Source: Deltaproteobacteria bacterium (GTDB taxonomy: Bacteria; Desulfobacterota; Desulfobacteria; Desulfobacterales; ETH-SRB1). Taken from it: DNA of 44,826 nt. The notes under the pieces are model-generated. The model made no database searches. It was not told where the DNA came from and was given only the letters and a program-made list of their open reading frames with translations. A program made the position numbers and the translations under genes. The first letter of the stretch is position 1. Each line of letters starts with the position of its first letter. The DNA lies in assembly GCA_030606805.1 (NCBI GenBank), contig JAUWFS010000003.1, positions 1 through 44,826 on the forward strand, read 5' to 3'. Positions 3,183 through 35,561 of this stretch are shown here, one piece after another.

Positions 3183-3321
3183 GTACTAAATACCGCTTTA
3201 TTTTTAATATTGATTATGGTATCAATTTAATCAGAATTCTTCTAAACTTATATTTCAACACTATTTTGCATTTGAATAATTGTAACGCTTTATCTTTATG
3301 AAACAAACCGATTGCATATGA

Positions 3322-3520
3322 GCTTCAGGTATAATACATTCAAAACTCAGAAACTGTCTGAGCGTATTAGATATCGTTAAGAAAGAATCCTTTATAAAAT
3401 AACATTCTTTGTCTGGCTGTTTGCTCAATTACTAAAATTTCTTTATAGTTATGGCCGATTCTTTCTTTACGATATCTAATGCGTGAGTTTTTCATGGTTT
3501 GAATGTATTATACCTGAAGC
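3322..3520 (+). mobile_element. Nested-palindrome element with core B
   Basis: Perfect 23-bp outer IR (3322-3344/3498-3520); 27-bp inner IR with 2 mismatches (3363-3389/3457-3483); core ACTGTCTGAGCGTATTAG...CTAATGCGTGAGTTT. Confidence 0.75.
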
Positions 3521-3594
3521 GGATATATTTTCAAAAAGCTAAAGTCTTACTAATATTTTTACTGAAAATATTAAGCGAAAAGCAATATATATGC

Positions 3595-3640
3595 AACCTA
3601 AATTGAGCGATTTTTTACTCGACCTGCACCAATCTCTTGC
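3595..3640. repeat. Solo arm of the 36943-37111 element family
   Basis: AACCTAAATTGAGCGATTTTTTACTCGACCTGCACCAATCTCTTGC matches the reverse complement of about 37067-37111 with few mismatches. Confidence 0.7.
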
Positions 3641-3711
3641 TGAAACTCCAAAGCTGTTTTATTAAATTTTCACCTGAAATTACAAAAAAGTTTACTGATG
3701 AGGTAATCGCC

Positions 3712-3867
3712 ATGCCAAGCTGGAAATGCAGTAATTGCGGATATTCATTAGAAGCTGAAACTCCGCCCGAACAATGCCCTTCATGCAAAAAAAAATGCGA
3801 ATTTCTGGACACCACCTGTTATACGCCTGATTGCAAATCTGAAGGTGTTGACAAGAGAATCGGTTAA
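3712..3867 (+). CDS. Small rubredoxin-like metal-binding protein, 51 aa
   Basis: WKCSNCGY...PPEQCPSC plus extra Cys (KCEF, TCYTPDC); GAGG RBS before ATG 3712. Confidence 0.85.
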
Positions 3868-3872
3868 ACATC

Positions 3873-4865
3873 ATGCTGGCGATTGGATTACAGGGAAGCC
3901 CTCGAAAAAACGGCAATACAAGTTATCTGCTTTCAGCTTTCATGAATGAATTGAAAAAATCGGGGGCGCAGATAAAAGTCATTGAGGCGGATAAAAAAAA
4001 TATTATCCCTTGTAAAGAATATTCCGTCTGTGAAAAAAAAGGATTTTGTCCAATCAATGATGACATGAACCCTGAAATTTATCCTCTGCTACGCCAGGCC
4101 GATGTTATAGTTGTCGCCACCCCTATCTTTTTCTATAGCGCTCCTGCACAACTGAAAGCGCTCATAGACAGAAGCCAGGCGCTTTGGGCAAGAAAATACA
4201 GGTTAAAGTTGAATGACCCAAACAGGAAATGGCGGCGCGGATTTCTTCTTTCTCTTGGAGCTACAAAAGGGAAAAATCTCTTTGAAGGCCTTCATCTTAC
4301 AATTAAATATTTTTTTGATGCAATCGGTGCAAGCCTGGAAGGAAGCCTGACATACAGACAGATTGAAAATTCGGGAGATATGGAAAAACATCCTTCTGTC
4401 CTAACTGATGTAAAAGAAAAAGCAAGCCATCTTATAAAACCGTTTCTCGGAAGAAAAAAAATTCTATTTGCCTGCCGGGAAAACGCCTGCCGCAGTCAGA
4501 TAGCCAGTGCTTTTGCCCAGCACCTTGCCGGCGATAAATTTGAAGTTATAAGCGGAGGAAGCAGTCCTGCCGGTAAAATTAATCCATTAATGGTCGAAGC
4601 AATGAGTGAAAAGGGGCTGGATATGGCCTTCCGTAAACCAAAATCAATTGAAAAGGCAGTTGCTGAAGTAAAGCCGGATATTATTATTACTATAGGTTGC
4701 GGTGAGGAATGTGCTTTTATGCCCGGGGTTAAAATAGAGGACTGGGATCTGCCTGATCCAACAGGAAAACCAATTGATTTTATGCGTAATATCAGGGATA
4801 AAATCGAAAACAGAGTTGTTGGCCTGATAAAAGATTTTGGTAGCCGTTCACGGCTTGAAACTTGA
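3873..4865 (+). CDS. Flavodoxin / iron-sulfur-flavoprotein-like domain fused to an ArsC/LMW-PTP domain
   Basis: N-terminal GSPRKNGNT, ATPIFF, LKALIDR; C-terminal FACRENACRSQ (CX5R), GCGEEC, DWDLPDP. Confidence 0.85.
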   Translation: MLAIGLQGSPRKNGNTSYLLSAFMNELKKSGAQIKVIEADKKNIIPCKEYSVCEKKGFCPINDDMNPEIYPLLRQADVIVVATPIFFYSAPAQLKALIDRSQALWARKYRLKLNDPNRKWRRGFLLSLGATKGKNLFEGLHLTIKYFFDAIGASLEGSLTYRQIENSGDMEKHPSVLTDVKEKASHLIKPFLGRKKILFACRENACRSQIASAFAQHLAGDKFEVISGGSSPAGKINPLMVEAMSEKGLDMAFRKPKSIEKAVAEVKPDIIITIGCGEECAFMPGVKIEDWDLPDPTGKPIDFMRNIRDKIENRVVGLIKDFGSRSRLET

Positions 4866-4887
4866 AATTGGAAATTAGAAATTAGGG
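4840..4887 (+). repeat. Family H element end, overlapping the 3' end of the flavoprotein-ArsC gene
   Basis: GTAGCCGTTCACGGCTTGAAACTTGAAATTGGAAATTAGAAATTAGGG. Confidence 0.75.
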
Positions 4888-5215
4888 AGAAATTAAAATA
4901 GAATTTCCTTACCACTCAGATAAGCTGTGAAAGAAATGATCTGCCGGCAACTCTAACCGGATAAGATGTCAAGACCATTACACGATATCCTGCGTATTAA
5001 CATCCGATTGCTCTGTAAAAATCCGCGAGTAGTGAAGGTCAAGATTTCAAAATTCAAACGTAAACGCAAGAAAGACAAATCATAATACAAAAATTTCGTA
5101 TTTTCCCATATTCTTTTTCTTGATATTTTTAGATGGTTACTCTACGGTATTTTCGTGAGTTTGTGTTGAGCTTTTCTCTACGAAACACGCATTTGTCAAC
5201 ATACGAGAGGAAACA

Positions 5216-5467
5216 ATGCCAACAGTTAAAAATATTCCTGGCCATTATCGGCTCTTCTTTTACAGTTTTGATTGTGCTGAACCAGCGCATGTTCATGTGC
5301 AACGAGAACGCATGGTGTGTAAATTCTGGCTTGATCCGCTGGTGTTGAGCCAAAATCATGGGTATTCTCCTCACGAACTGCGCCAGATTCGTAAACTGAT
5401 TGGAGGAGCGTATCTCAATTACATTATGGAGGCATGGTATGAGCACTGTGGTAAAAATATCGCTTAA
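5216..5467 (+). CDS. DUF4160-family protein (putative toxin-antitoxin component)
   Basis: MPT...YRLFFYSFD..EPAHVHV...KFWLDP...EAWYEH pattern; GAGG RBS. Confidence 0.85.
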   Translation: MPTVKNIPGHYRLFFYSFDCAEPAHVHVQRERMVCKFWLDPLVLSQNHGYSPHELRQIRKLIGGAYLNYIMEAWYEHCGKNIA

Positions 5468-5741
5468 AATTAAAGAAGTGTCTGTCAATGATGAAAGCAT
5501 TACGGCCTATCTGATGGATGGCAGGGTGATTAGTGTTCCTTTGGAGTGGTCATGGCGGTTGGCTGAGGCGACACCTGAACAACGCACCCATTTTGAGATG
5601 ATTGGCGACGGGCACGGCGTCCATTGGCCGGATATTGATGAAGATATTAGCGCAGAAGGGATGTTGTATGGAGTTCCTGCATCTCGTCCCAAACATCACA
5701 CGCGACCATCTCATAATACAAAAGACAGGGTCTATGCTTAG
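5439..5741 (+). CDS. DUF2442-family protein, partner of DUF4160
   Basis: LMDGRVISVPLEW..RLAEATPEQR...GVHWPDIDEDIS; GGAGG RBS before ATG 5439; overlaps the upstream gene. Confidence 0.85.
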   Translation: MSTVVKISLKIKEVSVNDESITAYLMDGRVISVPLEWSWRLAEATPEQRTHFEMIGDGHGVHWPDIDEDISAEGMLYGVPASRPKHHTRPSHNTKDRVYA

Positions 5742-5759
5742 GAATGGAGCATAGATGCC

Positions 5760-5865
5760 TATAGACTTTCAGATAATTAATTTCACTGTGTTATCAGTCG
5801 TCGACGTATAACTAATACGCCTTCCTCCTTCTGGCCTTGTGAAATGAATTATCTGAAAGTCTATA
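5760..5865 (+). mobile_element. 106-bp MITE-like palindromic element, family T (core A), copy 1
   Basis: 27-bp terminal IR TATAGACTTTCAGATAATTAATTTCAC / GTGAAATGAATTATCTGAAAGTCTATA; near-identical copy at 11752. Confidence 0.85.
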
Positions 5866-5888
5866 AATACCCTTAAAAAATCAGAGAT

Positions 5889-7370
5889 ATGGGTTTTGCT
5901 TTTCTTGAAATGGGATCAAAAGCAAATAAAATTCAAATCGTCATTATCTTATCTTTCTTTCTTATAACCTGCGGTTGTTTTTCTCATGACAAATACACTT
6001 ACGAAAGCATCAGGCAGGAATATGCAAAAGTAATATGCGATGATGCGTTTTCAACAAAAGTTTCAAAAACCGAACAATATACCTGTGCTTTACAAGAACC
6101 TGTCTCTTTGAACGATGCAATTCAAATTGCTCTTGCAAATAATCCTGATAACAAGATTGCCGTTGCCCGCATAAAGCAGGCAAAAGCTATGATCGAAAAG
6201 GCAAATGCTAACTTTTTCCCCTTTCTTGGATTTTATACTCAATATTCTCAGGGGGATGCACCATCAGGATATCTTTTCAAGAAGATTGACCAGAGACTGC
6301 TGCCTGCAAATGTAGATTTTAACTCTCCAGGCTGGTATGAAAATTATGAGACCGGAATTAAAGCAGGAATAAATATATTCAATGGCGGACGAGACATTTT
6401 AAATAAAAAAATCGCTGAAACCGTTTTCTCTATTTCTCAGATAGATAGAAAAAGCGTAGAAAACTCCCTTGTTGCCTCAGTAATACATACATACTATAAC
6501 GCTCTTGCCGCAAAAGAATATATTAAAATTACCAGGGACTCCGTATCAACTGTTAAGTCGCAACTGCGTCTAATGAATGTGAGGTTCAGAGCCGGAGGAG
6601 TTCTAAAATCAGACATATTATCCCTGGAAGTCCGTCTTGCTCAAGCCAGGGAAGACGTAGTCCTGAGTGAAAACAGGCTAAAAACAGCTCTAACTGCTTT
6701 TGCCGGTATTCTCGGTGTAAGCCCCGAAACTGAAATCAGACTTAAAAAAATAGAAAGCCGCGAAATCCCCTTACCAAATGAATACATTGCCGGTGTTGCC
6801 TATGCCCTTGAAAACAGGTCTGAAGTTAATAAAATTAAGGAACGTATCAAACAGAGCAGAATGGCTCTTGATCTGTCTCGTGCAGAATATCTGCCCAGAG
6901 TTGATCTGCAAAGCAAATACTATGTTGATGATCCTGAAATGGCTTACAATGACTCAAGAGACAACTGGATTGCGGCAGTCATATTTAACTGGGACATATT
7001 TACAGGCTTTAGCACAAAAGCAGAAGAAGAAAAAGCAAAAGCCAGGCTTGAAGAAATGCTGGCAGCAGATCTCAAAACCAGACTATCTGTAAAGCTTGAT
7101 GTTAAAAATGCCTACCTGAAACTGGCGGAAGCAAAAGCCAGGCTCGAGGTAGCGGAAAAAAGCGTGGCCATGGCTGAAGAATCTTTTAAGCTTGTCAGAA
7201 AACAATATGAAGGCGGCGCTGCTACCATAACACGATACTTTGAAGCCGAGCTTGCGCTTAATCGAGCAAAGACTCGAACAACGGCAGCTTATTATGACAG
7301 GGAAAAGGCTCTCGCGGATATTGGCAGAGCGGTAGGTTACTGGGGGAAGGTGAATAAAATCACACCATGA
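5889..7370 (+). CDS. TolC-family outer membrane efflux protein, probable lipoprotein; start may be 5910
   Basis: Hydrophobic N-terminus with Cys, SLNDAIQIALANNP, two OEP-like repeats (VIHTYYNAL, DVKNAY); first gene of a tripartite operon. Confidence 0.9.
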   Translation: MGFAFLEMGSKANKIQIVIILSFFLITCGCFSHDKYTYESIRQEYAKVICDDAFSTKVSKTEQYTCALQEPVSLNDAIQIALANNPDNKIAVARIKQAKAMIEKANANFFPFLGFYTQYSQGDAPSGYLFKKIDQRLLPANVDFNSPGWYENYETGIKAGINIFNGGRDILNKKIAETVFSISQIDRKSVENSLVASVIHTYYNALAAKEYIKITRDSVSTVKSQLRLMNVRFRAGGVLKSDILSLEVRLAQAREDVVLSENRLKTALTAFAGILGVSPETEIRLKKIESREIPLPNEYIAGVAYALENRSEVNKIKERIKQSRMALDLSRAEYLPRVDLQSKYYVDDPEMAYNDSRDNWIAAVIFNWDIFTGFSTKAEEEKAKARLEEMLAADLKTRLSVKLDVKNAYLKLAEAKARLEVAEKSVAMAEESFKLVRKQYEGGAATITRYFEAELALNRAKTRTTAAYYDREKALADIGRAVGYWGKVNKITP

Positions 7371-8506
7371 AAAACAAAAAAATTGTAATAATATTGTTGT
7401 GTTCCGTTAGTTTAATTTTAGTTTTCTTTGCTGTTAAATTCATTTCAAGTACAAAAATTGCGCCGGGCAAGTTTCAGGCTGCATCAAAAAATGATGTGTC
7501 ACCGAAAAATATTGGACAAGCATCTGTCCGGACTATAACCGAATGCTATGAGGCTGTTGGAACAGTGCGCCCTGTTACAGAAGCGAGTATCGAATCCCAG
7601 GTAACTGCTCAGGTTCTTGATGTCAAGGTCAGACCCGGCGACAAGGTTTTTAAAAACCAGCTTTTAGTATCTTTAGATAACAGACAGTTGATGTCACGTC
7701 TTGATCAGGCAAAACAAACCTTAAAAACAGCCATATCAGGAAAAAAACAGGCAAAACAGACAATAATAGCCGCCAGCGCGGCATTTTCAGAAGCTGAATC
7801 TGATTATAAACGTATAGAAATTTATTTTGAATCCCAGGCAGCTACCCCTCAAGATATGGAAAAAGCCGAATCAGCATTCCTTCAGGCAAAGGCGACTTTA
7901 AATAGAGCTAAAGAAGCTTTGTCAGCTTCAAAATCCGGAATAAAACAGGCGGAAGAAATCGTAAAGGAGGCGGGAATAGCACTTGGATACACAGAGATAA
8001 GAGCACCTGAAAGCGGTAAGGTTTTAGAACGTCTTGTTGAACAAGGAGATTTAGCCCTGCCCGGAAAGCCTTTAATTATACTGCAAACTACCGGCTCGCT
8101 CAGGCTTGAAGCATATGTACGTGAAGGACTGATCAAAAAGATTCAGCCCGGAACATTTCTTAAAGTAACAATAAATACTTTGAATGAAACAGCGACGGCA
8201 ACGGTTGAGGAGATTGTCCCTTATGCTGATCCGCAAACACGAACTTTTCTTGTAAAGGCATTATTGCCGCATATATCCGGAATATATCCCGGCATGTTCG
8301 GAAAACTGCACATCCCTGTTAAAGACCTCCAGGTTGTTGTTATACCAAAAATTGCCGTTCGTAATATAGGACAGCTTGAACTAATTACAGTAAAGGAAAA
8401 TAATTTCTGGAAGACACGTTTTATTAAAACCGGCAAAACTTTTGAAGATAAGGTCGAAGTTCTCTCCGGACTATCCGGAGATGAGACAATAGGCTGGGAG
8501 GAATAA
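7367..8506 (+). CDS. RND periplasmic adaptor (membrane fusion protein)
   Basis: N-terminal TM, VRPGDKV, coiled coil, YTEIRAPESGKV, ADPQTRTF, VEVLSGL. Confidence 0.92.
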   Translation: MKNKKIVIILLCSVSLILVFFAVKFISSTKIAPGKFQAASKNDVSPKNIGQASVRTITECYEAVGTVRPVTEASIESQVTAQVLDVKVRPGDKVFKNQLLVSLDNRQLMSRLDQAKQTLKTAISGKKQAKQTIIAASAAFSEAESDYKRIEIYFESQAATPQDMEKAESAFLQAKATLNRAKEALSASKSGIKQAEEIVKEAGIALGYTEIRAPESGKVLERLVEQGDLALPGKPLIILQTTGSLRLEAYVREGLIKKIQPGTFLKVTINTLNETATATVEEIVPYADPQTRTFLVKALLPHISGIYPGMFGKLHIPVKDLQVVVIPKIAVRNIGQLELITVKENNFWKTRFIKTGKTFEDKVEVLSGLSGDETIGWEE

Positions 8507-8510
8507 CTTA

Positions 8511-11500
8511 ATGCCGGAAAACGAATCTGCTCCGAGCGGTTTTATCGCACGTATTGTCAGAAGATCTATTTCCTCACATCTCTCAATCATCCTGCTGATC
8601 TTATCCCTGTGCCTCGGAATTTCCGTTATTCTCGTCACACCGAGAGAAGAAGAACCTCAGATAGTAGTTCCCCTGGCGGATGTTTGTGTATATGCTCCCG
8701 GCTCAAATGCAACCGAAATAGAAAAACTTATTGCAACGCCTCTGGAACGTCTTTTATGGCAGATTGACGGCGTTGAATACGTATATTCTATGTCCTGTGA
8801 GGACATGGCAATCGTTACAGTCAGATTTTATGTAGGAGAAGACAGGGAAAATTCGCTGGTAAAACTCCACAATAAGATTACAATGAATATTGACGCCGCT
8901 CCCCCGATTGTTAAGGGATGGGTGATAAAACCAGTAGAAATAGACGACGTTCCCATTGTAAATATAAGTCTTTATTCAGATCGTTATGATGATTATGAAC
9001 TTCGCAGAATCGGTGAGGAATTATTATCAAGGCTTGCAAAGGTAAAGGACATTTCAAGGGCTGAAATCGTTGGTGGCCGCAAACGAGAGATACGCATCGA
9101 ACTCTTACCTGAACGTATGTCAGGTCTTGGAGTATCTTTACTTGAAGTGCAGAGAACTCTCCAGGGAGCGGATGCTTCTGTTACAGCAGGTAAATTTTCC
9201 CGCTTTAATAAAGAAGTTACAGTAACAAGCAAATCTTTCCTTTCATCTTCAAATGAAGTTTCATCACTTATGGTTGGAGTTCACAATGGACGTCCGGTAT
9301 ATTTGCGAGATATTGCAAATATATTTGATGGCCCGGAAGAATCAGAGTCTTACTCGAGAATCGGTTACTCAAATTTTTATCGTAAAACTCACAATAAAGA
9401 AAATACCCCCTTTTCATTCCCGGCCGTCACACTCGCCCTTGCCAAAAAAAAGGGGACCAATGCCGTTACAGTCTCCGAAAATATCCTGGTCAAGCTTGAT
9501 GAATTGAAAAAAAGCACTATTCCCGATGGCGTTAATGTTGAAGTAATTCGCAACTACGGTAAAACTGCCGGGCAAAAAGTAAATGGACTCTTAAGTTCGC
9601 TGGCTTTTGCAGTTATTTCCGTTATTATACTTCTCGCTGTTACTCTTGGATGGCGTGAAGCACTGGTGGTTGCGCTTGCCGTACCTGTCAGCTTTTCTCT
9701 TGCTCTTTTTGTCAATTATTTATTCGGATATACAATTAACAGGGTTACGCTTTTTGCTCTTATACTCTCCCTGGGGCTTGTGGTTGATGATCCTATTACA
9801 AATGTAGATAACATACAGCGCCATATTTTGATGGGCAAGCGTAAAGCATTTTCAGCAACGCTATTTGCCGTTAATGAAGTGCTTCCTCCGGTAATAATGT
9901 CCACACTCGCCATAATAATCTCATTTCTACCCCTGTTTTTCATTACAGGAATGATGGGGCCGTATATGGCTCCAATGGCAGCAAATGTTCCCCTTACAGT
10001 AACATTTTCAACGCTCTGTGCGCTTACCATTGTGCCGTGGTTAACGCACCTGCTGCTGAAAAACATGAATATCCGCAAGATGACCGACTCCCAAACAAAT
10101 CAGATAAAGCAGACAAATCATGATAAAGGTATAAATGTATGGATCGGGCAAATCTACCGCAAAATTGTATCTCCTTTTCTCAAATCAAAAAGCAAAAGAT
10201 ACATGCTTCTGGCTGCTATTATTTTTCTCCTTTTAGTATCTATAGGTCTTGCTGTTTTCCGACTCGTGCCCTTGAAAATACTTCCTTTTGATAACAAAAA
10301 TGAATTCCAGATAGTTATTGACATGCCGGAAGGAACTACACTTGAAACCACCAATACTGTTGTACAGTCCTTTGAAGACTTTCTCAGGGAAATCCCTGAA
10401 ATTACCAGCTTTGTGTCCTATGTAGGAAATTCGTCTCCCATGGATTTCAACGGCATGGTTCGTCACTATTATCTGAGGAAAGGAAGCCACCTTGCAGATA
10501 TACGTATAAATCTCGCTGAAAAAAATAAACGGAAGCAACAAAGCCATGCTATTGTTCTCCGGCTTAGAAAGGAACTCGAAGACATTGCAAAAGCAAACAA
10601 TGCAGTAATCAAAATTGTTGAAGTCCCTCCCGGTCCCCCTGTGCTTTCGACAATTGTGGCTGAAATCTATGGCTCCCCTGACCGTTCTTATGATCAAATC
10701 ATAAAAGGAGCAGAACATATAAAGAATTTAATGGCAGCAGAGCCTTTTGTAGTGGATATTGACGACACAGTTGAAACCGGGCGCAACAAAATAGATTTTA
10801 TTATTGACAAGGAAAAGGCTGCTCTTCACGGAGTCTCCACGAATGAAATTATTCAAACTTTGAAAATTGCGATAGGAGGTGCTGCGCCTGCCACAATACA
10901 TACTTCTGAAGAAAGGCAGCCTCTAAGTATAAAAATAATTTTACCAAGAAAAAACAGATCAGGAATTACTTCTTTATCACAAATACCGCTCAAAACAAAT
11001 ACCGGCAAGATGGTTCCTCTGGCGGAACTTGTAAAGATAGTTCACATCCCTGAAGACCAGCCTGTTTATCATAAAAACCTTGAACGCGTGGTATATGTGA
11101 CGGGAGAAATGGCAGGCAGAGCTCCCGGCGAAGCTGTTCTTGATATGCAGAAAAAACTTAAACAAACTCCGCCGCCGCCGGGAATCAGGGTAAAATGGGC
11201 AGGTGAAGGCGAATGGAAGATAACTATCAGGGTATTCAGAGATATGGGCATAGCATTTGCGGCAGCTCTAACAGGAATCTATATTCTTCTTATAATGGAA
11301 ACTAATTCATTTTCCATGCCAATATTGATTATGATGTCAATACCTCTCACGCTTCTGGGCATTATGCCGGGATTCTGGCTGCTGAATGTTTTCACGGGAG
11401 AACAGGTGGGCGGCTTCTTCAACCCTGTCTTTTTTACCGCAACAAGCATGATAGGCATGATAGCTCTTGGTGGAATTGTAATAAGGAACTCCCTTGTTCT

Positions 11501-11756
11501 GATTGATTTTATTAAAAACGCTCTTAATGAAGGCATTTCTTTTAAAGAAGCTATTCTCCGAAGTGGAGCGATCAGGATGCGTCCTATATTACTTACCGCT
11601 TGCACAACCGCGATCGGCGCCTGGCCCATTACACTGGATCCGGTTTTCTCAGGCCTTGCCTGGGCTCTGATTTTTGGACTTTGTGCATCCACAATTTTTA
11701 CGCTTATAATAGTCCCTGTTACATACTTCTCTCTTTATAGAAAAAAGTATGTATAG
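8511..11756 (+). CDS. RND efflux permease (AcrB/CusA superfamily)
   Basis: 1081 aa; PREEEPQI, GLVVDD, GIVIRNS, RMRPILLT motifs. Confidence 0.95.
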   Translation: MPENESAPSGFIARIVRRSISSHLSIILLILSLCLGISVILVTPREEEPQIVVPLADVCVYAPGSNATEIEKLIATPLERLLWQIDGVEYVYSMSCEDMAIVTVRFYVGEDRENSLVKLHNKITMNIDAAPPIVKGWVIKPVEIDDVPIVNISLYSDRYDDYELRRIGEELLSRLAKVKDISRAEIVGGRKREIRIELLPERMSGLGVSLLEVQRTLQGADASVTAGKFSRFNKEVTVTSKSFLSSSNEVSSLMVGVHNGRPVYLRDIANIFDGPEESESYSRIGYSNFYRKTHNKENTPFSFPAVTLALAKKKGTNAVTVSENILVKLDELKKSTIPDGVNVEVIRNYGKTAGQKVNGLLSSLAFAVISVIILLAVTLGWREALVVALAVPVSFSLALFVNYLFGYTINRVTLFALILSLGLVVDDPITNVDNIQRHILMGKRKAFSATLFAVNEVLPPVIMSTLAIIISFLPLFFITGMMGPYMAPMAANVPLTVTFSTLCALTIVPWLTHLLLKNMNIRKMTDSQTNQIKQTNHDKGINVWIGQIYRKIVSPFLKSKSKRYMLLAAIIFLLLVSIGLAVFRLVPLKILPFDNKNEFQIVIDMPEGTTLETTNTVVQSFEDFLREIPEITSFVSYVGNSSPMDFNGMVRHYYLRKGSHLADIRINLAEKNKRKQQSHAIVLRLRKELEDIAKANNAVIKIVEVPPGPPVLSTIVAEIYGSPDRSYDQIIKGAEHIKNLMAAEPFVVDIDDTVETGRNKIDFIIDKEKAALHGVSTNEIIQTLKIAIGGAAPATIHTSEERQPLSIKIILPRKNRSGITSLSQIPLKTNTGKMVPLAELVKIVHIPEDQPVYHKNLERVVYVTGEMAGRAPGEAVLDMQKKLKQTPPPPGIRVKWAGEGEWKITIRVFRDMGIAFAAALTGIYILLIMETNSFSMPILIMMSIPLTLLGIMPGFWLLNVFTGEQVGGFFNPVFFTATSMIGMIALGGIVIRNSLVLIDFIKNALNEGISFKEAILRSGAIRMRPILLTACTTAIGAWPITLDPVFSGLAWALIFGLCASTIFTLIIVPVTYFSLYRKKYV

Positions 11757-11857
11757 ACTTTCAGATAAATAATTTCACTGCGTTATCAGTCGTCGACGTA
11801 TAACTAATACGCCTTTCTCCTTCTAGCCTTGTGAAATTAATTATCTGAAAGTCTATA
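11752..11857 (+). mobile_element. Family T element, copy 2 (same orientation as copy 1)
   Basis: 5 differences in 106 bp from 5760-5865; contains the permease TAG stop. Confidence 0.85.
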
Positions 11858-11870
11858 GAAAGGAGGCGTC

Positions 11871-12596
11871 ATGAAAAGGGCTTTTAAAGATATTTCGGAA
11901 ATAATACATCAGACAGATCCAAAAGCAAGCTTTGCCATAAAATTCTGGGATGGTGATTCAATAACTATCGGGGATAAACCGAAGTTTATTTTAAAGCTTA
12001 AATCCTTGAGGGTCGCCAAAAGGATTCTCAGAGATGGTTATGTCGGCTTTGGAGAATCATATATGAAGGGAGATATAGAAATTGAAAACGATCTGCAGGA
12101 GCTTCTTCGTCTTGGCATTTCAATTGATTTTGATAGCGCGCGGCTACCTTCCTGGCAAAAAATACGTTTTTTTATCCTTGCACTTCTCAACAGCGATACA
12201 TTAAGAACTGCCCCAAAAAATATTTCTTACCATTATGATAAAGGCAATGAATTTTATGCGCTTTATCTTGATAAAACAATGAGTTACTCCTGTGCATACT
12301 ATAAAAGTAAAGATAATTCTCTGGAAGAAGCGCAATTGAGCAAATATGAGCATGTATGCAGGAAACTTTTATTGAGTCCTGGTGAATCACTGCTTGATAT
12401 AGGCTGTGGTTGGGGAGGAATGCTCATCTATGCCGCACAGAATTATGGAATAACAGGAGTTGGAAATACGCTTTCACAAAATCAATATGAATATGCCGGC
12501 AATAAAATAAAGGAGTTGGAGCTACAAGATAAGATTACTATCATACTCGGTTTTTCTTCTCTATCAACTCCTAATCAGAGTCTCGGTGAATTTTAG
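11871..12596 (+). pseudogene. cfa: C-terminally truncated paralog of the cyclopropane fatty acid synthase-family gene
   Basis: Highly similar to 13828-15021 until about 12548, then diverges; lacks FDKIVSIGMFEH and the C-terminal ~165 aa. Confidence 0.85.
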
Positions 12597-12597
12597 C

Positions 12598-13104
12598 TTA
12601 TGCATCTTCATTCCAAATAGGATTTTTACGGTCATCGGGATGAAGGCGTTCCTTCTCCTGCTGATGCAAATGCCAATAGGATTTATCAATCGCTCCCTCC
12701 GCATACTCACACTTCTGATCATGGTGGAACGGACACCACCAGTTCTCCACGATTTTTACCAGATAGGCAATATAACTAAATAAGGCAACACTCAGCGGAC
12801 AATATAGCTTGCAATTGAAAATCCAGTACCAACGGTAAGCGCATGGATAGTACCATTTTACACCCGTTGAATAGGTAATCTGATTACGATAACGGTATCG
12901 ATGGGAGACCCAGTGCGGCACAAAATCCCAATACGGACGAATATTCTTGGCACCCATCAACCTCAGGTGAGATTTCACCAAAAACACACAAACCACAACA
13001 AAGGGAATAGAAAATATTATCGGCAGATAAATCAATGGTACCCCAATAAACACCTTCCATAAGGTTTGATTCGTAAAGTTATCTCCGATCTTAACGCGTT
13101 CCAT
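12598..13104 (-). CDS. Hypothetical Cys/His/Trp-rich membrane protein; likely start ATG 13104 (ORF extends to 13191)
   Basis: Two hydrophobic segments; FNCKLYCP and ENWWCPFHH motifs. Confidence 0.7.
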   Translation of the reverse strand: MERVKIGDNFTNQTLWKVFIGVPLIYLPIIFSIPFVVVCVFLVKSHLRLMGAKNIRPYWDFVPHWVSHRYRYRNQITYSTGVKWYYPCAYRWYWIFNCKLYCPLSVALFSYIAYLVKIVENWWCPFHHDQKCEYAEGAIDKSYWHLHQQEKERLHPDDRKNPIWNEDA

Positions 13105-13253
13105 TCTGGTGCTCTCACTTAAATTATTGGGAAAAATTGCCCTCTGGCGCGGTTTTTTGGCTTTATTCATATGCTTACATCTAACCCCCAAGTCACCTGT
13201 TGATTTTAATCAAAAAAAACACCCCGGAAAACCGTCAAGGCAAATTTACCTTG

Positions 13254-13557
13254 TTAGGTGCCTTGTTTGAAAACCGAGTTTGGTTTTCCATAAGCAACCC
13301 CATCCCCTTCCACTGCCATTATGGCTAATACTGTATCTTTGTTAATAATTTCGCCTGGCGCTAAATTTCCTTGCTCCATTAATGCACCTCGAAATGTAGT
13401 AAATATTTTGCTCAGCTCGCCTTTTTTTCTTGTTAATGCGTAGGGGGATGTCGTTCGGCACAATATGCCCCCATTTACTGTCACTATTCCACCCCCCTCC
13501 TACCCATGCCACAAACTCAAGCTCTTTATGAGGACCCAATAATTTTTTAAATATCAT
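13254..13557 (-). pseudogene. Possible frameshifted ~100-aa gene
   Basis: ORFs 13342-13707 and 13254-13484 join if one base is removed; G6 (13492-13497) and A7 (13422-13428) tracts lie at or near the overlap. Confidence 0.3.
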
Positions 13558-13827
13558 CACATTTAAATGGCATTTGCAACAAGTCATTAAATAGTTTAAA
13601 AAGAATTTGAGTCCCCGCTTGACATGTAAATTTGATTTTAATATAATTTTATTAAGTTTTTGATTCATTAAAACTGCGATCACTGCATCTGCTTTTCCAC
13701 CAGTCATGATTTTCTTGGCCGGATTTCTTCAAAACATCGCCTGTTTATCCAAAAGCAGTGGGTGTATTAATTTCTTAACCAAAGTCTCATTTTGAGACCA
13801 CTGAGGTTTAAGTAGAAGGGAGGCGTC

Positions 13828-15021
13828 ATGAAAAAGGCTTTTAAAGATATTTCGGAAATAATACATCAGACAGATCCAAAAACAAGCTTTACCATAGAAT
13901 TCTGGGATGGTGATTCAATAACTATCGGGGATAAACCGAAGTTTATTTTAAAGCTTAAATCCTTGAGGGGCGCCAAAAGGATTTTCAGAGATGGTTATGT
14001 CGGCTTTGGAGAATCATATATGAAGGGAGATGTAAAAATTGAAAACGATCTGCAGGAGCTTCTTCGTCTTGCTTTTTTAATTAATTTTGATGATTCCCGG
14101 CTGAGTTCCTGGCAAAAAATACGTTTTTTTATCCTTGCGCTTCTCAACAGAGATACATTAAGAACAGCTCCCAAAAATATTTCTTACCATTATGATAAAG
14201 GCAATGAATTTTATTCGCTTTATCTTGATAAGACAATGACTTACTCCTGTGCATACTATAAAAGTAAAGATGATTCTCTGGAAGAAGCACAATTGAGCAA
14301 ATATGAGCATATATGCCGGAAACTTTTATTGAGTCCTGGTGAATCACTGCTTGATATAGGCTGTGGTTGGGGAGGGATGCTCATCTATGCCGCACAAAAA
14401 TATGGAATAACAGGGGTTGGAAATACGCTTTCACAAAATCAATATGAATATGCCGGCAATAAAATAAAGGAATTAGGGCTGGAGGATAAGATTAAGATCT
14501 TATATATGGATTATCGTGAGTTAAGCGGAAAATTTGACAAAATTGTTTCCATTGGAATGTTTGAACATGTAGGGAAAAAATTCATTCCGGTATTCATTAA
14601 AAACGTATCGAGTTTACTGAAAAAAGGAGGTTTGGGCCTGCTACACACTATTGGAAAAGATACGCCATCTCCCATTGAAACATGGACATCCAATTATATA
14701 TTTCCCGGCATATATGTCCCTAGTCTCGATGAGATCCTGCGTGAAATGGGGAAAAACGGTTTTTCAATATTGGACGTAGAAAACCTCCGGCTCCACTATG
14801 CAAAAACCCTAGACCAATGGGCAGAAAATTATGAAAAAAATATTGAAAAGGTGAAAAAAATGTTTGATGATATATTTGCAAGGCAATGGCGTCTTTTTTT
14901 ATATGGTAACTCAGCAGGATTTAAATATGGCATGTCTCGCCTGTATCAAGTTCTTTTCACAAAAGGATTAAACAATACATTGCCTACAACCAGATCACAT
15001 GTGTATAACATTCAACCGTGA
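13828..15021 (+). CDS. cfa: Cyclopropane-fatty-acyl-phospholipid synthase family SAM methyltransferase
   Basis: NISYHYDKGNEFY, MTYSCAYY, LLDIGCGWGG, FDKIVSIGMFEHVG, YIFPG, HYAKTL. Confidence 0.93.
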   Translation: MKKAFKDISEIIHQTDPKTSFTIEFWDGDSITIGDKPKFILKLKSLRGAKRIFRDGYVGFGESYMKGDVKIENDLQELLRLAFLINFDDSRLSSWQKIRFFILALLNRDTLRTAPKNISYHYDKGNEFYSLYLDKTMTYSCAYYKSKDDSLEEAQLSKYEHICRKLLLSPGESLLDIGCGWGGMLIYAAQKYGITGVGNTLSQNQYEYAGNKIKELGLEDKIKILYMDYRELSGKFDKIVSIGMFEHVGKKFIPVFIKNVSSLLKKGGLGLLHTIGKDTPSPIETWTSNYIFPGIYVPSLDEILREMGKNGFSILDVENLRLHYAKTLDQWAENYEKNIEKVKKMFDDIFARQWRLFLYGNSAGFKYGMSRLYQVLFTKGLNNTLPTTRSHVYNIQP

Positions 15022-15042
15022 CGGCTTCGTAAAAAGCCATCA
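15019..15042. repeat. Short hairpin overlapping the cfa stop codon
   Basis: TGACGGCTT-CGTAAA-AAGCCATCA. Confidence 0.45.
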
Positions 15043-15059
15043 ACCTTCAGGAGGTCACC

Positions 15060-15506
15060 ATGAATATAAAAAAAATAGCCTGTTGTATAGATTTTTCAGA
15101 AAATGCCGAAGATGCATTTATAACGGCCCTCGATCTGGCTGAAAAAAATAAAGCCAAACTTTTTGTAATTCATGTATCGCCGCCTGTCATAAGTTATCAA
15201 GCAACAGATACGGAATGGATGATGCCTTACGAACCGGAAGGACCTTTGATTTTAGAATTAGAAAAACGAATGGATAAAGAGTATGGAGCCAGAATAGGTG
15301 AACATACTGATTATAAGCTTGTTGTACTTAGCGGACATATTTCAACAGAAATATTAACATACTTGAAAGAAGAAAATATCGATCTTGTTGTGATGGGCTC
15401 TTATGGACTATCGGGAATGGGGCTCGTATTCTTCGGTAGTGTGGCCAAGAGAGTGGCACATAAGTCCCCGTGCTCTGTACTGATAGTACGTAAACAAAAA
15501 AAGTAG
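15060..15506 (+). CDS. Universal stress protein (UspA family)
   Basis: KKIACCIDFSENA, DLVVMGSYG, FFGSVAKRV...PCSVLIV. Confidence 0.92.
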   Translation: MNIKKIACCIDFSENAEDAFITALDLAEKNKAKLFVIHVSPPVISYQATDTEWMMPYEPEGPLILELEKRMDKEYGARIGEHTDYKLVVLSGHISTEILTYLKEENIDLVVMGSYGLSGMGLVFFGSVAKRVAHKSPCSVLIVRKQKK

Positions 15507-15550
15507 CCGTTCACGGCTTGAAACTTGAAATTGGAAAGTGGAAATTTGGG
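15503..15550 (+). repeat. Family H element end filling the Usp / next-gene junction
   Basis: GTAGCCGTTCACGGCTTGAAACTTGAAATTGGAAAGTGGAAATTTGGG. Confidence 0.75.
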
Positions 15551-16754
15551 AAAGATTAAAAAAATTCTATCTACTGCTGTGCTCTTAACTGTGTTTCTTT
15601 TTTCTTCAACCTATTTGGCAGCCGGCTCTGATCTAAAGGAAGCAAAAATTCCTGATTCCCTGCATTCCGGGCTGGAATATCTTTTATCCTTAACTTCCAG
15701 GGATAAAAACGAACCTGTTGATCTTAAACTTATTCAAAAGGTACTGGATTTTGTCGTTTCTCCCAAAAACAGCTCCTCCCTTTATTATACAGACAAATTG
15801 TTCGGCTCGCCTTCCGCTTATTATGAATTTGATATTAATAGAGATCTGAAACACATTCTCCAGTATGCATACAATCCTGATATTCCTTCATTTGCTTTTA
15901 TGCCTTCTTCTGTCCGGCTTTCCTACTGGGCTGAGGTAAACGGGCAAAATCAAGACCTGCCTAAATTGTGGACATATCTCTCAAATTCTGATTGTCCAAT
16001 AGTGGTTAAAGGGGTTGAACATATAGAAATAACTCCGGATCAATTTACAGGTGCTTACTATCGTTATGATATAGATAAGGCTTTGATTCTTTGCAAGTAT
16101 CACGGCCGAAATCTATTAATCTCGATTTCCAAACAAAAAGACAAGTCCGATGTGGGCAGAAAAGGTATTGTACTGGGCTCAGATGACAACTGGGACTATC
16201 TTTATTCGGGCCGGAAAGGTCTTTCAATGCGGGGTCTTGGTTGGGTCAGCTCCTATATGTACAACTCCATCGGCATAAGCTTCCTGTACGAGGTTGACTC
16301 AAAAAAACCCGTTGTAAGATACGCTGCCTTTAAATGGCTCAGGGCTGGATGGGCTGATGTGAATGTAGTGAAAAACAAGCACATCCATAAAGGTCTGGTT
16401 CGCTATGCAAAGGATTTAAAGATGATTTTGGAGCACCCTTTGCTGCCTGAAGCTTCAAAACTTGCAAAATTATTTTCTGATTTTGAAAATTATCCCCCCG
16501 AAGATATGAGAGAGAAGGTTAAAAGTCATTTAACTGCTCTGAAAGACAGATATAATGGAAACAAATTATCATCCGGTAAAAACTTCCCTAAAAATTTAAA
16601 TATCAGTGAATATTTAAATCAAATGACAAATAAGGAGATATATGCGCTTCTTGTTGTGGAATACATGAAATCCATACTTGGGGAAAACCAGTATTTAGGT
16701 AATACATTACTTTTCAGCAAAAGGCAGCTTGATAACAGCTATATAGTGCCGTAG
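15525..16754 (+). CDS. Hypothetical exported protein, 409 aa; start uncertain
   Basis: Long ORF with signal-peptide-like KIKKILSTAVLLTVFLFSSTYLAA; TTG start lies within a repeat. Confidence 0.75.
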   Translation: MKLESGNLGKIKKILSTAVLLTVFLFSSTYLAAGSDLKEAKIPDSLHSGLEYLLSLTSRDKNEPVDLKLIQKVLDFVVSPKNSSSLYYTDKLFGSPSAYYEFDINRDLKHILQYAYNPDIPSFAFMPSSVRLSYWAEVNGQNQDLPKLWTYLSNSDCPIVVKGVEHIEITPDQFTGAYYRYDIDKALILCKYHGRNLLISISKQKDKSDVGRKGIVLGSDDNWDYLYSGRKGLSMRGLGWVSSYMYNSIGISFLYEVDSKKPVVRYAAFKWLRAGWADVNVVKNKHIHKGLVRYAKDLKMILEHPLLPEASKLAKLFSDFENYPPEDMREKVKSHLTALKDRYNGNKLSSGKNFPKNLNISEYLNQMTNKEIYALLVVEYMKSILGENQYLGNTLLFSKRQLDNSYIVP

Positions 16755-16786
16755 CTTTCAGCATCAACGTCCTACCGGACGAGTTC

Positions 16787-18001
16787 TTAGTATAAAAAGC
16801 CAAACAACCACATGGGGATGACATTACCAAAACCCATGTCGATATCGTCTTTTACAATGTAAGCATTTTCTTTTCCCGCTATCTGTTTTTTCCCCTTACA
16901 ACTGCCGCCTACTTCAAGTAGATACTTACCCTCTACCAAAAAATCGCCTCGACTTGGAATACGCACTTGCAGGCCGGCACTTATCAACTGATGCTGAATA
17001 AATGTTTCGCGCACCGTTCCGACAGGGTCTTCTCTGCTCAATTCCCCTGCGATTGCTCTGAGCAAGTTTGTATTTTCAATATAAATTTTAACGGGTTTAC
17101 GCACGAGCTTGAAGCCGGATCCTTCCGGCATAACACCTGATAAGAGACCTGCCCGCTCCAGATAGTCAAGGTACCCATAAAGAGTTGGCTTTGAAAGTCC
17201 CAGATTGTTGGAAATACGCACAAGATTTGGCTCAAATGGTTGAGAGGTGGCAATTAACCAGAGAATCCGTTTTAGCATCGGAACATTAGAAGATTTAATG
17301 CTGGATGTAGAGACAATGTCTTCGTAAAGTGTTTTTTCAATAATGTTTCTGAGTTTTGCAAGATATTCTTCTATTCCTTCCACAAAAAAAGGATAAATGC
17401 CATGTTCAAGGTAATCTCGAAAAAGTCCCAACACAGGTCCCTCAACCAAAACTTCTGACGTCAATCGTGCATGTTCCTTTAATAGACCGGCGAGTGTGAT
17501 GGCGGGGAGTTTAACCTTTCTGGCTAATAGCAGGTATTCTCGAAAAGAAAGACCCGGCAAAGTATAGAAAACAGCACGCCGCGACAGGTCGGCCTTTCCA
17601 AGTTGCAGTCCGAGGGTAGAACTGCCTGAAAAAAGGATTTTTGCTGATGGAAATGAATCATAAAGATTTTTTATTTCCTGCGGCCATCTGGCGTATTTGT
17701 GGATTTCATCAATGATAATGACCTCGCCGCCCATGCGAAAAAATTGTGATGCGATCTCATAAATGCCGATGGCCTCAACCCGAATGTTGTCTGCTGAAAT
17801 ATAAAGATATTTTGATGAATATGAACTTTTTCCGGCTAAATACTGAAGCAACAGCGTAGTCTTCCCTGTCCCGCGACCGCCAATGATTCCAATCAGACGA
17901 TTTTTCCAGTTGATCCGTTCGTAAAGAGAGCGATAATTTTCTCTCGGAACCTGTTTAAGGAGAGCTTCCTGAATACTTATAAATGGACTTAAATCAATCA
18001 T
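16787..18001 (-). CDS. AAA_14-type ATPase with DUF4143-like / PD-(D/E)XK-like C-terminus
   Basis: Walker A GGRGTGKTT, Walker B IIIDEIHK, SGSS, LSRR, KIYIENTNL, RETF, GDFLVEGKYLLEVGG. Confidence 0.88.
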   Translation of the reverse strand: MIDLSPFISIQEALLKQVPRENYRSLYERINWKNRLIGIIGGRGTGKTTLLLQYLAGKSSYSSKYLYISADNIRVEAIGIYEIASQFFRMGGEVIIIDEIHKYARWPQEIKNLYDSFPSAKILFSGSSTLGLQLGKADLSRRAVFYTLPGLSFREYLLLARKVKLPAITLAGLLKEHARLTSEVLVEGPVLGLFRDYLEHGIYPFFVEGIEEYLAKLRNIIEKTLYEDIVSTSSIKSSNVPMLKRILWLIATSQPFEPNLVRISNNLGLSKPTLYGYLDYLERAGLLSGVMPEGSGFKLVRKPVKIYIENTNLLRAIAGELSREDPVGTVRETFIQHQLISAGLQVRIPSRGDFLVEGKYLLEVGGSCKGKKQIAGKENAYIVKDDIDMGFGNVIPMWLFGFLY

Positions 18002-18147
18002 GAAATATAGTCGTGAAAACCATAGTTGTTATTTTTAAACAATTCCATAAAGTCAATTTTACTAATAATAAAAATATCGTAAAATACATTTAACGCATTC
18101 CATGCTATCCTGTCAATGATTTTATTCTGCATACATCTGGTATTGTT

Positions 18148-18300
18148 TTTTTCGCTCATTCCCAGGACTATCACATGGTGCAATACTCCAAAGGCCTGTC
18201 CGCCATCGGCTTTGCCTTCAGTGGAGTTCACAACCCAAACCGTAAAACCAACAGCGTACTGAACAATTCTTCTTGTAACGCTTCCGATAAAGAATTCCTT
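18148..18300 (-). pseudogene. Chimeric remnant: Usp C-terminus followed in frame by a RAYT-like N-terminal motif
   Basis: One frame reads KEFFIGSVTRRIVQYAVGFTVWVV-NSTEGKADGGQAF-GVLHHVIVLGMSEK. Confidence 0.5.
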
Positions 18301-18335
18301 TCAAACAGACTCTAAGGGCTCGTAAAGCTATAAGG

Positions 18336-18507
18336 TGTCCAAAACAATGGACAGTGCCCATGCAAAGACTTCACCTCTACTATTCAACATGGCTGTTAAT
18401 ATCACAGGTTATCGTTTGATGTGTACCTGAGAGCTGCAAAGGATTTTCGGCTGATGAGGGGGCCGCACAAAGTGTCCAAAATAATGGACGGTGTCCAAAG
18501 TTGGTCA
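18336..18507. promoter_or_regulatory. Three palindromic putative enhancer-binding-protein sites
   Basis: TGTCCA-N6-TGGACA (18336-18353), TGTCCA-N6-TGGACG (18473-18490), TGTCCA-N4-TGGTCA (18492-18507). Confidence 0.6.
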
Positions 18508-18724
18508 ATGTGTAAATCCCGAAAGATAATAACGTTTGATAGTTACAGCAATAACAATGGGTTGGGAAATACGATCGACCATGGTTTCCATGGTTTTTTG
18601 GTGTTCCGTCGCCTTCAATGACTAAGGAAAAAGATGGCGTTACTACCGGAGCAGGAAGGCTCACAATCTTTAATTAACTGGCAATACAAGAGGTTATCGC
18701 TTCAGGCCCGATTTGGCTTTTTCC

Positions 18725-18740
18725 TGGCATACTTTCTGCA
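18725..18740 (+). promoter_or_regulatory. Putative sigma-54 -24/-12 promoter
   Basis: TGGCAT-ACTTT-CTGCA fits TGGCAC-N5-TTGCW with correct GG/GC spacing. Confidence 0.6.
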
Positions 18741-18778
18741 ATTCAAACATTCTAATCTATCTGTATTGATCATTGAGT

Positions 18779-19068
18779 TATCAGAAATTTGAAAATTCAA
18801 ATACGAGATTAACCAGAGGCAGCGGGCATTTAAATTTAAGAACGTCTGAAACTCGCGCATAAGTGAGCCTAAATAAAAAAGAGTATTAATATCAGTTAGA
18901 AAAATTAAACGTTATGGCTTGAGTTTATCCTTTTAACAAAAATATACAAAAGTGCCTCTTTTTTCTTTAGACTCACTAATACGCTCAAACAGTCAGCCGT
19001 TTTAAATTTAAATGCCCGCCACCTCTAATTGTTAACAAGTTACTTTTGAGTTTTTAAATTTCTGGTTA
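18779..19068 (-). mobile_element. ~290-bp nested-palindrome element with core B
   Basis: IR pairs CAGAAATTTGAAAA/TTTTTAAATTTCTG and GCGGGCATTTAAATTTAA/TTAAATTTAAATGCCCGC; minus-strand core ACTGTTTGAGCGTATTAG...CTTATGCGCGAGTTT. Confidence 0.75.
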
Positions 19069-19187
19069 TAGATTTTCAGATAATTAATTTCACAAGATCG
19101 GAAGAAGAAATCCGAGCAATGCGTACTTATTTGTACTTGGTTGAGGGTTTCGACTGATAACGCCGTGAACTTATTTGTGAAGATTTA
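19067..19187 (-). mobile_element. Family T element, divergent inverted copy 3 with a different centre
   Basis: TATAGATTTTCAGATAATTAATTTCACAAG...CGACTGATAACGCCGTGAA matches the reverse complement of copies 1 and 2. Confidence 0.7.
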
Positions 19188-28965: not shown

Positions 28966-29004
28966 CAGAAATTTGAAAACTCAAAAGTAACTTGTTAACA
29001 ATTA
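28966..29004. repeat. Solo arm of the 18779-19068 element upstream of murA
   Basis: CAGAAATTTGAAAACTCAAAAGTAACTTGTTAACAATTA has one mismatch to the reverse complement of about 19026-19064. Confidence 0.75.
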
Positions 29005-29020
29005 ATAGAAACCTTCAAAC

Positions 29021-35343: not shown

Positions 35344-35365
35344 AATTTATGTCCTTACATTTGGT

Positions 35366-35529
35366 GTAGCAGTTTACAGTTCACGGTTGTCGGTTCACAG
35401 TTCACAGTTTTTTCAATGAACTATGCAACGATTGAAGCATTCTGGATATTGATTTCAACTTGTGCAATATTTATAAACCTTCTGTTTTTTTCAACCGTGA
35501 ACCGATAACTGTAAACCGTGAACGGTTAC
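35366..35529. mobile_element. Family H-related palindromic element with a different heptamer
   Basis: Ends GTAGCAGTTTACAG / CCGTGAACGGTTAC; internal GTTCAC(A/G) heptamers mirrored on the other arm. Confidence 0.7.
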
Positions 35530-35561
35530 CAATTCTTGAATCAGTTTTTTAATTTTTTACG

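Follow-up and report, generated by a model that had tools for sequence, protein, structure and literature searches.

A conserved internal loop in a hairpin module of Desulfobacterales miniature transposable elements, possibly acting as a folded single strand

The Correia or NEMIS repeats of Neisseria have 26 bp inverted ends, a TA duplication and an IHF site, and are processed by RNase III. REP and REPIN sequences are hairpin-forming intergenic repeats of 20–40 nt that flank a RAYT gene and are believed to be recognized in single-stranded form by an enzyme of their own. The bcr1 repeat of the Bacillus cereus group (Okstad 2004; Klevan 2007; summarized in Delihas 2011) is about 155 bp long, contains two stem-loops and is reported to be transcribed in the passages of that summary devoted to it (PMC3184786). 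In large chromosomal integrons, attC sites have their folding strand predominantly on the leading-strand template, an arrangement that limits folding, according to the sections of PMC8946536 that deal with these sites. Here, we analyse a hairpin-forming repeat that is present twice in a stretch of 44,826 nucleotides from a Deltaproteobacteria bacterium of the order Desulfobacterales (GenBank assembly GCA_030606805.1, contig JAUWFS010000003.1, positions 1 to 44,826 of the forward strand). This whole stretch is referred to as the window, its two copies of the repeat as copy 1 and copy 2, and the short asymmetric loop that both contain as core B.

In the interpretation that we favour, and which we hold with about even confidence, a hairpin module of ~200 nt has core B as its nearly invariant internal loop, is carried as cargo by miniature inverted-repeat transposable elements (MITEs) of the Desulfobacterales and acts as a folded single strand. 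A preliminary description, made from the letters of the window, had proposed that the junction between the outer and the inner stem is the selected signal, that the stems turn over by compensatory change, that the copies may represent a mobile class or a structured non-coding RNA and that the junction is a protein-binding site on single-stranded DNA or RNA. The analysis below supports the conserved junction, the compensatory stems and the mobile class, and favours a single-stranded reading; the further proposal that the outer arms and inner hairpins of the two copies are unrelated did not hold.

The internal loop and its covarying stems

The motif reported for the junction, ACTGTYTGAGCG followed by GCGYGAGTTT, has exactly two occurrences in the window, one on the plus strand at 3353–3490 and one on the minus strand at 18849–18993. 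Its chance expectation is 0, as no match was obtained in any of 100 dinucleotide-preserving shuffles of the window. Both regions are predicted to fold into a single long hairpin (copy 1, −80.2 kcal/mol, z −9.97; copy 2, −103.2 kcal/mol, z −10.63), and in both predicted folds the motif halves oppose each other across an asymmetric internal loop, as had been described. The consensus of this loop is 5′ ACTGTYTGAG opposite 3′ YGAGTTT (ACUGUYUGAG and YGAGUUU in RNA form). The module of copy 1, consisting of arms, internal loop, inner stem and variable apex, is located by its fold at 3322–3520 on the plus strand (nhmmer match 3322–3519). The 5′ side of its loop, ACTGTCTGAG, lies at 3353–3362, in columns that are (nearly) invariant across the order, and the 3′ side, TGAGTTT, was placed at 3484–3490 by pattern match and by the order-wide alignment. 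The module of copy 2 occupies 18820–19021 on the minus strand (fold; nhmmer match 19021–18820). Read on that strand, the 5′ side of its loop is ACTGTTTGAG (18984–18993) and the 3′ side CGAGTTT (18849–18855), both placed by the order-wide alignment.

The arms of the two copies are diverged homologues and can be aligned through intermediate subfamilies, so that to call them and the inner hairpins unrelated was wrong. Homology likewise extends over the initial ~25 bp of the inner stem: one side reads YATTAG, 6–7 covarying base pairs and TTAAGAAA, and the opposite side TTTCTTTA, 6–7 bp and CTTATG. The alignment of 62 non-redundant family representatives has the loop, then YATTAG, 6–7 variable paired positions and TTAAGAAAGAAC, and the matching right side contains two conserved T–T mismatches. 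The only portion of the module that resists alignment is the apex of ~70 nt.

Compensatory change was quantified in a family alignment of 62 sequences with 31 predicted pairs (A1) and in an order-wide alignment of 44 sequences (12 family and 32 order-wide members) with 44 pairs (A2). Paired cells make up 95.4% of A1 and 90.8% of A2, compared with 81.0 and 63.2% after shuffling. Both sides have changed in 24 of the 31 pairs of A1 (shuffled mean 16.1) and in 38 of the 44 pairs of A2 (shuffled mean 34.0). Cells with a double change number 233 in A1 and 554 in A2 (56.1 and 181.5 when shuffled), and the covariation score is 0.428 for A1 and 0.719 for A2 (0.171 and 0.218 when shuffled). On each measure none of 500 shuffles of A1 and none of 500 shuffles of A2 matched the observed value. 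Slid controls gave at most 11 pairs changed on both sides for A1 and a covariation score of at most 0.175 for A2. The stems do turn over by compensatory change around a far more conserved junction, as had been suggested, and such matched changes around a fixed loop indicate that the folded shape is under selection.

In checks that are less biased towards the loop, ten of 11 elements selected by their ends and lacking the exact core keep the loop with at most one change, and changes in the adjoining GCG/CGC of these same elements are mostly compensatory. Among 33 profile matches in the source genome, the loop columns are ~90–100% conserved and the arm columns near 50%. The stem that adjoins the loop differs entirely between lineages; fixed elements besides the loop itself are TTAG/CTT and GTT/TTAC. 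The junction signal stands across the order for ACTGTYTGAG and (Y)GAGTTT, with the GCG/CGC of the motif as first described being a local version only.

The fold is strand-specific. The loop-bearing strand folds better than its complement in 60 of the 62 family representatives (mean −82.2 versus −69.8 kcal/mol) and in all 32 order-wide members, hence in 92 of 94 representatives together. G–U pairs, which account for about 9% of all pairs, greatly outnumber 1 × 1 A–C mismatches (435 versus 32 in the family and 211 versus 10 order-wide), and several positions that face an invariant G hold either C or U. A reading as single-stranded DNA or RNA is favoured by this asymmetry. Exchange of DNA between the arms would not produce it and would erase the asymmetric loop, which argues against an explanation in terms of double-stranded DNA only.

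A covariance-model search of the window with Rfam 15 at the gathering threshold returned two tRNAs and nothing at the hairpins; at E values of up to 10 or 1 weak chance matches to models of microRNA and snoRNA type appeared, far below their thresholds. The module thus has no match among the Rfam families. The two tRNA genes are adjacent, have long arms and lie at 37827–38018 (59.1 and 57.4 bits). A kink-turn was checked for by hand: GA is present on both strands of the loop, but no register with a 3 nt bulge beside a regular helix was found. A literature search on MITEs or palindromic repeats in Desulfobacter-type organisms and on nested covarying MITEs gave nothing relevant, although supplementary repeat catalogues could differ. 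Within the literature searched we found no published description of the module.

Carrier elements and distribution

The unit limits first proposed were too small. Copy 1 belongs to a non-autonomous transposon of 269 bp (3282–3550, plus strand), which was recognized from its sequence and from the same end type elsewhere and has the ends GTAAC... and ...GTCTTAC. Its 8 bp target duplication has decayed (3274–3281 and 3551–3558, with five of eight positions alike), and one contig from a public run skips 3275–3551, that is 277 bp or 269 + 8. One contig lacks the module only: it skips 3321–3517 (197 bp) and is joined at a 3 bp AGC repeat. Copy 2 belongs to a non-autonomous transposon of 283 bp (18782–19064, minus strand), delimited by terminal inverted repeats of 18–20 bp that start with CAGAAATTT and by the target duplication GTTAT (plus strand) at 18777–18781 and 19065–19069. 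One public-run contig skips 18777–19064, corresponding to 288 bp or 283 + 5. Duplications of 5 bp are seen for the CAGAAATTT-type element both here and in contig C105, where the CAGAAATTT-type copy is inserted in the outer part of a GTAAC-type element.

The same hairpin is held by other ends. The GTAAC-type end GTAWYAWTTTAGYY has 73 and 180 matches in two other genomes, in pairs ~260–275 bp apart, and in these two genomes clean 8 bp duplications (for example CCGATTTT, GAATTGTG, AATTTCTT and GAAAGGAA) surround ~270 bp elements of this type. For CAGAAATTTNNAAACNCA ends 77 matches were found, paired at ~265 bp spacing. Elements of the GTAWYAWTTTAG type in other genomes have 8 bp target duplications, as does a further family in which the hairpin lies between GGCTCCTCGCTGTT ends. 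One closed genome has the module without either of the first two end types. At least four kinds of non-autonomous transposon thus serve as carriers of one hairpin module. GTAAC-type elements of the source genome are often enclosed in turn by CAGAAATTTAC ends.

The orientation of the module relative to its carrier is constant in 14 of 15 copies of one subfamily and inverted in the remaining one (L060). One locus of the source genome (C29:4578–4781) is a chimera in which the left arm of one subfamily is joined to the core and right arm of another. The chimera and the inversion are evidence that copies or arms do recombine with one another. At two loci of the source genome (C252:9974–10359 and C188:6364–) the CAGAAATTT-type apex also hosts a different insert of ~275 bp with repeated GTGCCTAAAG words, which makes this apex a recurrent site of landing or rearrangement. 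Two loci of other genomes (L052 and L116) have perfect GC palindromes of ~16–19 bases, of the CCCGC..GCGGG type, within the inner stem or the closing helix, so that a REP-like repeat adds a third level to the nesting. In the window itself, a lone truncated left end of a CAGAAATTT-type element (~45 bases, 28966–29010) adjoins a terminator-like hairpin.

The elements are short, non-coding and multi-copy, with inverted ends, a duplication of fixed length and presence/absence polymorphism at the same locus, as MITEs are. Terminal inverted repeats, target duplications and empty sites bear out the mobile-element class that had been proposed, and the inverted ends and duplications set the elements apart from the palindrome-associated elements derived from IS200/IS605, which have neither and carry subterminal hairpins. 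An autonomous partner with the same ends and a transposase was not found; the three long end-pairs that were checked contain ordinary genes, the assemblies being fragmented so that absence is unproven.

Several candidate partners were considered and rejected. The GTAA-type ends with an 8 bp duplication suggested IS66, but the IS66-type gene of the source genome lacks such ends. PF03050 had no match in two copy-rich genomes, where absence is likewise unproven owing to fragmentation. Matches to Y1_Tnp, as in a RAYT/Y1 link, number seven, 11, ten, five and two in five genomes, and none of them adjoins a copy. Nor does a reverse-transcriptase gene, of which the source genome has one compared with about 55 module copies. 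An open reading frame (ORF) between two close copies encodes an acidic protein rather than a transposase. No convincing version with a gene in the apex was seen in the source genome and the collected loci, three mismatched pairs being judged to be chance. Genome G239, from a distant family, has 24 matches to the reverse-transcriptase family, mostly open frames of 446–496 amino acids and several with identical scores, which look like an expanded population of group II introns; its dnaA is at C1:1029491.

The source genome (3.1 Mb in 255 contigs, 40% G+C; the window is contig C182) contains 20 exact copies of the motif, against none for the reversed-pattern control. Exact left and right halves number 34 and 39, many of them within 200 bases of contig ends. 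An nhmmer profile of the 62 representatives gave 65 matches, 33 of them full length above 60 bits, and the total is about 55 module copies, two of which are in the window. The genome-wide search suggested earlier thus yields many further copies, in the source genome as well as in relatives. Among 41 relatives, 16 have the exact motif; in the genus 11 of 12 genomes are positive, and in the family 15 of 24. The motif was not found in 17 other families, each sampled by a single genome. A scan with one genome for each species gave at least 108 stretches with this motif, nearly all titled as metagenome-assembled genomes of uncultured Desulfobacterales or Thermodesulfobacteriota; one match is on a short contig of a Spirochaetota bin. 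Five matches outside the Desulfobacterales (L065, L071, L087, L101 and L103) lie in coding DNA and were dismissed as chance, and two GC-rich matches (L120 and L136) were removed by eye before ORFs and orientations were counted.

With the pattern reduced to the loops (ACTGTYTGAG, 100–150 bases, YGAGTTT), matches were obtained in 87 of the 301 genomes sampled from the order and in 53 of the 155 genera, with up to 89 copies per genome and more than 700 matches in total, compared with 0–1 per genome for the reversed control. In a sample of 401 genomes of the phylum, the pattern is multi-copy outside the order in one family only, and the other matches are singletons at control level.

Possible action of the folded strand and alternative readings

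The module may act as a folded single strand either as DNA that is exposed during replication or transposition or as RNA. The loop together with the conserved T–T mismatches would then form a putative docking site for a protein that aids the spread or persistence of the elements, and the module would pass from one type of transposon end to another by nesting and capture. Deletion of the hairpin at short direct repeats would give rise to short forms. Such forms are of 111 bp for the CAGAAATTT type, joined at a self-complementary 10-mer, and of ~59 bp for the GTAAC type, joined at TAA; an arms-only form is joined at ATTAAA. The junctions of the forms that lack the module are direct repeats of varied length (3, 6 and 10 bp) at differing depths in the arms. 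These short forms fit hairpin-stimulated deletion better than a module with a fixed target duplication of its own.

The orientation of the module may bear on the same process. In the window's family the neighbouring genes lie mostly on the strand opposite to the loop-bearing strand: with orthologous loci merged, the loop-bearing strand is antisense to co-directional gene pairs at 47 loci and sense at 13 (binomial p = 1.2 × 10⁻⁵). The remaining loci are divergent (17) or convergent (seven), both window copies lying between divergent genes. In G239, which is assembled into four large contigs, there is no gene-orientation bias (seven versus six), and 22 of 30 copies are on one strand, with long same-strand runs. 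On the loop-bearing strand, the flanks have a negative GC skew at 15 of 20 loci in G239, at 75 of 100 loci of other genomes (p = 6 × 10⁻⁷) and at 36 of 53 loci of the source genome (p = 0.013). The leading strand is usually G-rich and the loop-bearing strand is mostly C-rich, so that the better-folding strand is probably in most cases the leading-strand template. Trinh and Sinden (1991) reportedly found that the lagging-strand template is the preferred site of both hairpin formation and hairpin deletion, and the bias could reflect more frequent deletion of copies with the stronger hairpin strand on that template.

A number of points weigh against this account. The loop pattern served as the seed for both A1 and A2, which partly builds in the invariance of the loop within them. 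The gene-orientation bias, strong in the window's family, is absent in G239, and gene direction is a confounder of local GC skew. Where only the module has been lost, this is compatible with deletion but also with independent movement of the module. The RNA-library contigs that match the repeat give presence and empty sites, and neither strand, level nor transcript ends, so that they do not distinguish RNA from single-stranded DNA. Finally, none of the IS66-type transposases, Y1 transposases or reverse transcriptases adjoins the elements or carries their ends.

A stronger proposal, which we offer tentatively and consider rather doubtful, is that an undiscovered structure-specific enzyme system recognizes the module and reads it as folded single-stranded DNA or RNA, and that the module has lasted as long as the order itself by hopping between unrelated carriers. 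In that case it would be more than another kind of MITE, namely a mobile or hitch-hiking element of a new class, defined by its structure, in which the loop sequence is fixed and the stems are free, as in attC with its integrase.

We consider it unlikely that the module is mainly an RNA element, transcribed with or against its neighbours and acting in cis (as a processing site, stabilizer, terminator or insulator) or as a small RNA, with the ends merely spreading it. Its loop would then be an RNA–protein or RNA tertiary motif. The share of G–U pairs combined with a strongly one-stranded fold is like that of structured RNAs, and strong covariation, the absence of all 127 module copies from long ORFs, the gene-orientation bias of the window's family and the repeat-matching contigs in RNA libraries are all in line with such a role. 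The bcr1 repeat provides a precedent, being a transcribed mobile repeat with an RNA fold kept by compensatory changes, as far as the passages on it in PMC3184786 go. However, the better-folding strand is antisense to the genes at 47 of 60 co-directional loci, which would leave a read-through mRNA with the worse fold, and G239 shows no gene-orientation bias. The RNA libraries may be contaminated with DNA; the four public runs were available as contigs only, one of them is probably DNA and the uncovered parts are uninformative. No promoter is conserved across subfamilies. The sole strong site, TTGAAA-16-TATAAT of copy 1 (3534 to 3507, minus strand, 11 of 12 positions), is formed by the outer layer and the right arm and reads the complement towards the ORF at 2463–3182. 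It is not conserved in other subfamilies as judged by eye, which speaks against a promoter role, and most sister copies have GTGTGAT in the left arm instead of a matching TATAAT, so that the −10-like box is kept on the complement strand only. Terminator-like sites number zero in both regions, and Rfam gave no match.

The module could instead be a folded single-strand recombination site, such as an integron attC or the attachment hairpin of the CTX phage, that moves itself into palindrome apices by means of a site-specific recombinase or HUH enzyme. We regard this as quite unlikely. The imperfect palindrome, in which an unpaired spacer and the mismatches are conserved and the apex varies, would suit such a site, as would the presence of the module within at least four unrelated end types and the absence of the module alone from some contigs and short forms. 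Its folding strand is probably for the most part the leading-strand template, as are attC bottom strands in chromosomal integrons in the relevant sections of PMC8946536. Against this, junction repeats of 3, 6 and 10 bp at differing depths fit hairpin deletion and not a fixed target duplication, and the attC R-box consensus is not present in the sequences examined. The fixed module–carrier orientation in 14 of 15 copies of one subfamily fits descent of whole elements, and no recombinase was seen nearby, although no integrase-directed search was made.

Very improbable, finally, is a purely double-stranded DNA palindrome with arms homogenized by DNA exchange and a loop kept by descent or as a double-strand binding site, in which a single-stranded form would play no part: the inverted module of L060 and the one inter-subfamily chimera show that recombination does take place, but inversion is rare (one in 15 in one subfamily), exchange predicts G–T and A–C mismatches in equal numbers rather than the large excess seen, it would erase the asymmetric loop and would not give the one-sided stability, and the loop is kept order-wide while 38 of 44 stem pairs have changed.

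Neighbouring repeats and comparison with described systems

Several percent of the sequence of these genomes consists of palindromic repeats, which also break their assemblies, and at least 11 multi-copy intergenic repeats are present in the 45 kb window. Apart from the two elements above, nine stretches (151–400, 1701–1800, 4801–4950, 5751–5900, 11701–11900, 15451–15600, 35351–35550, 36901–37150 and 40701–40900) have six to 71 genome matches each. They include a palindrome of ~106 bp at 5760–5865 and 11752–11857, with 68–71 copies, and one of ~175 bp starting with CCTAAGTTGAGCG at about 36940–37115, with 47 copies, a relative of which begins at about 3597, just past copy 1. Tandem heptamer arrays lie at about 300–375, 4860–4890 and 15520–15550 (GAAATTN-like) and at 35380–35530 (GTTCACN-like), adjoined by small GC hairpins (GCCGTTCACGGC).

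The family of copies 1 and 2 joins the marks of a transposon (inverted ends, duplications and empty sites) with those of a folded nucleic acid (an invariant loop, 38 of 44 pairs compensated and a one-stranded fold), and does so across an order. It offers a test case for structure rather than sequence as the selected unit in selfish DNA, and a natural experiment on hairpin stability versus replication direction. The loop would also serve as a defined bait with which to look for its reader protein in the sulfate reducers of methane-oxidizing consortia and in their relatives.

In kind, the elements are a MITE family by their ends, duplications, copy number and empty sites, the autonomous partner not having been found. 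With Correia or NEMIS repeats they share an intergenic palindromic MITE character, long hairpins, length variants by internal deletion and the lack of a known transposase; we know of no order-wide covariation around a fixed loop in Correia elements, and their 26 bp ends, TA duplication, IHF site and RNase III processing were not found here, although no search aimed at them was made. REP and REPIN sequences are likewise hairpin-forming intergenic repeats, and Y1-type transposase genes occur in all five genomes checked here. In contrast to them, our module is of ~200 nt, resides inside elements with inverted ends and duplications and is not adjoined by a Y1 gene in any copy.

An attC site resembles the module in its low sequence conservation, imperfect palindrome, unpaired central spacer, mismatched bases, variable apex and single active strand, to judge from the sections on attC in PMC8946536. 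The conserved boxes differ, however, and the module occurs one copy at a time within transposon carriers that are dispersed among housekeeping genes, with no cassette arrays. The UG27 reverse transcriptases of phages, in those parts of a 2026 preprint that concern them, have adjacent hairpins with a conserved asymmetric internal loop and belong to a different system. The bcr1 repeat, as portrayed in the passages of PMC3184786 on it, is the closest parallel for a fold kept in this way and is also a small non-coding mobile repeat with 5 bp direct repeats at its ends, an uneven presence among related strains and a fold kept by compensatory change. It differs in being a repeat of the Firmicutes with two separate stem-loops, whereas the module described here is one hairpin of ~200 nt that is found order-wide, between several end types, with an invariant asymmetric loop.

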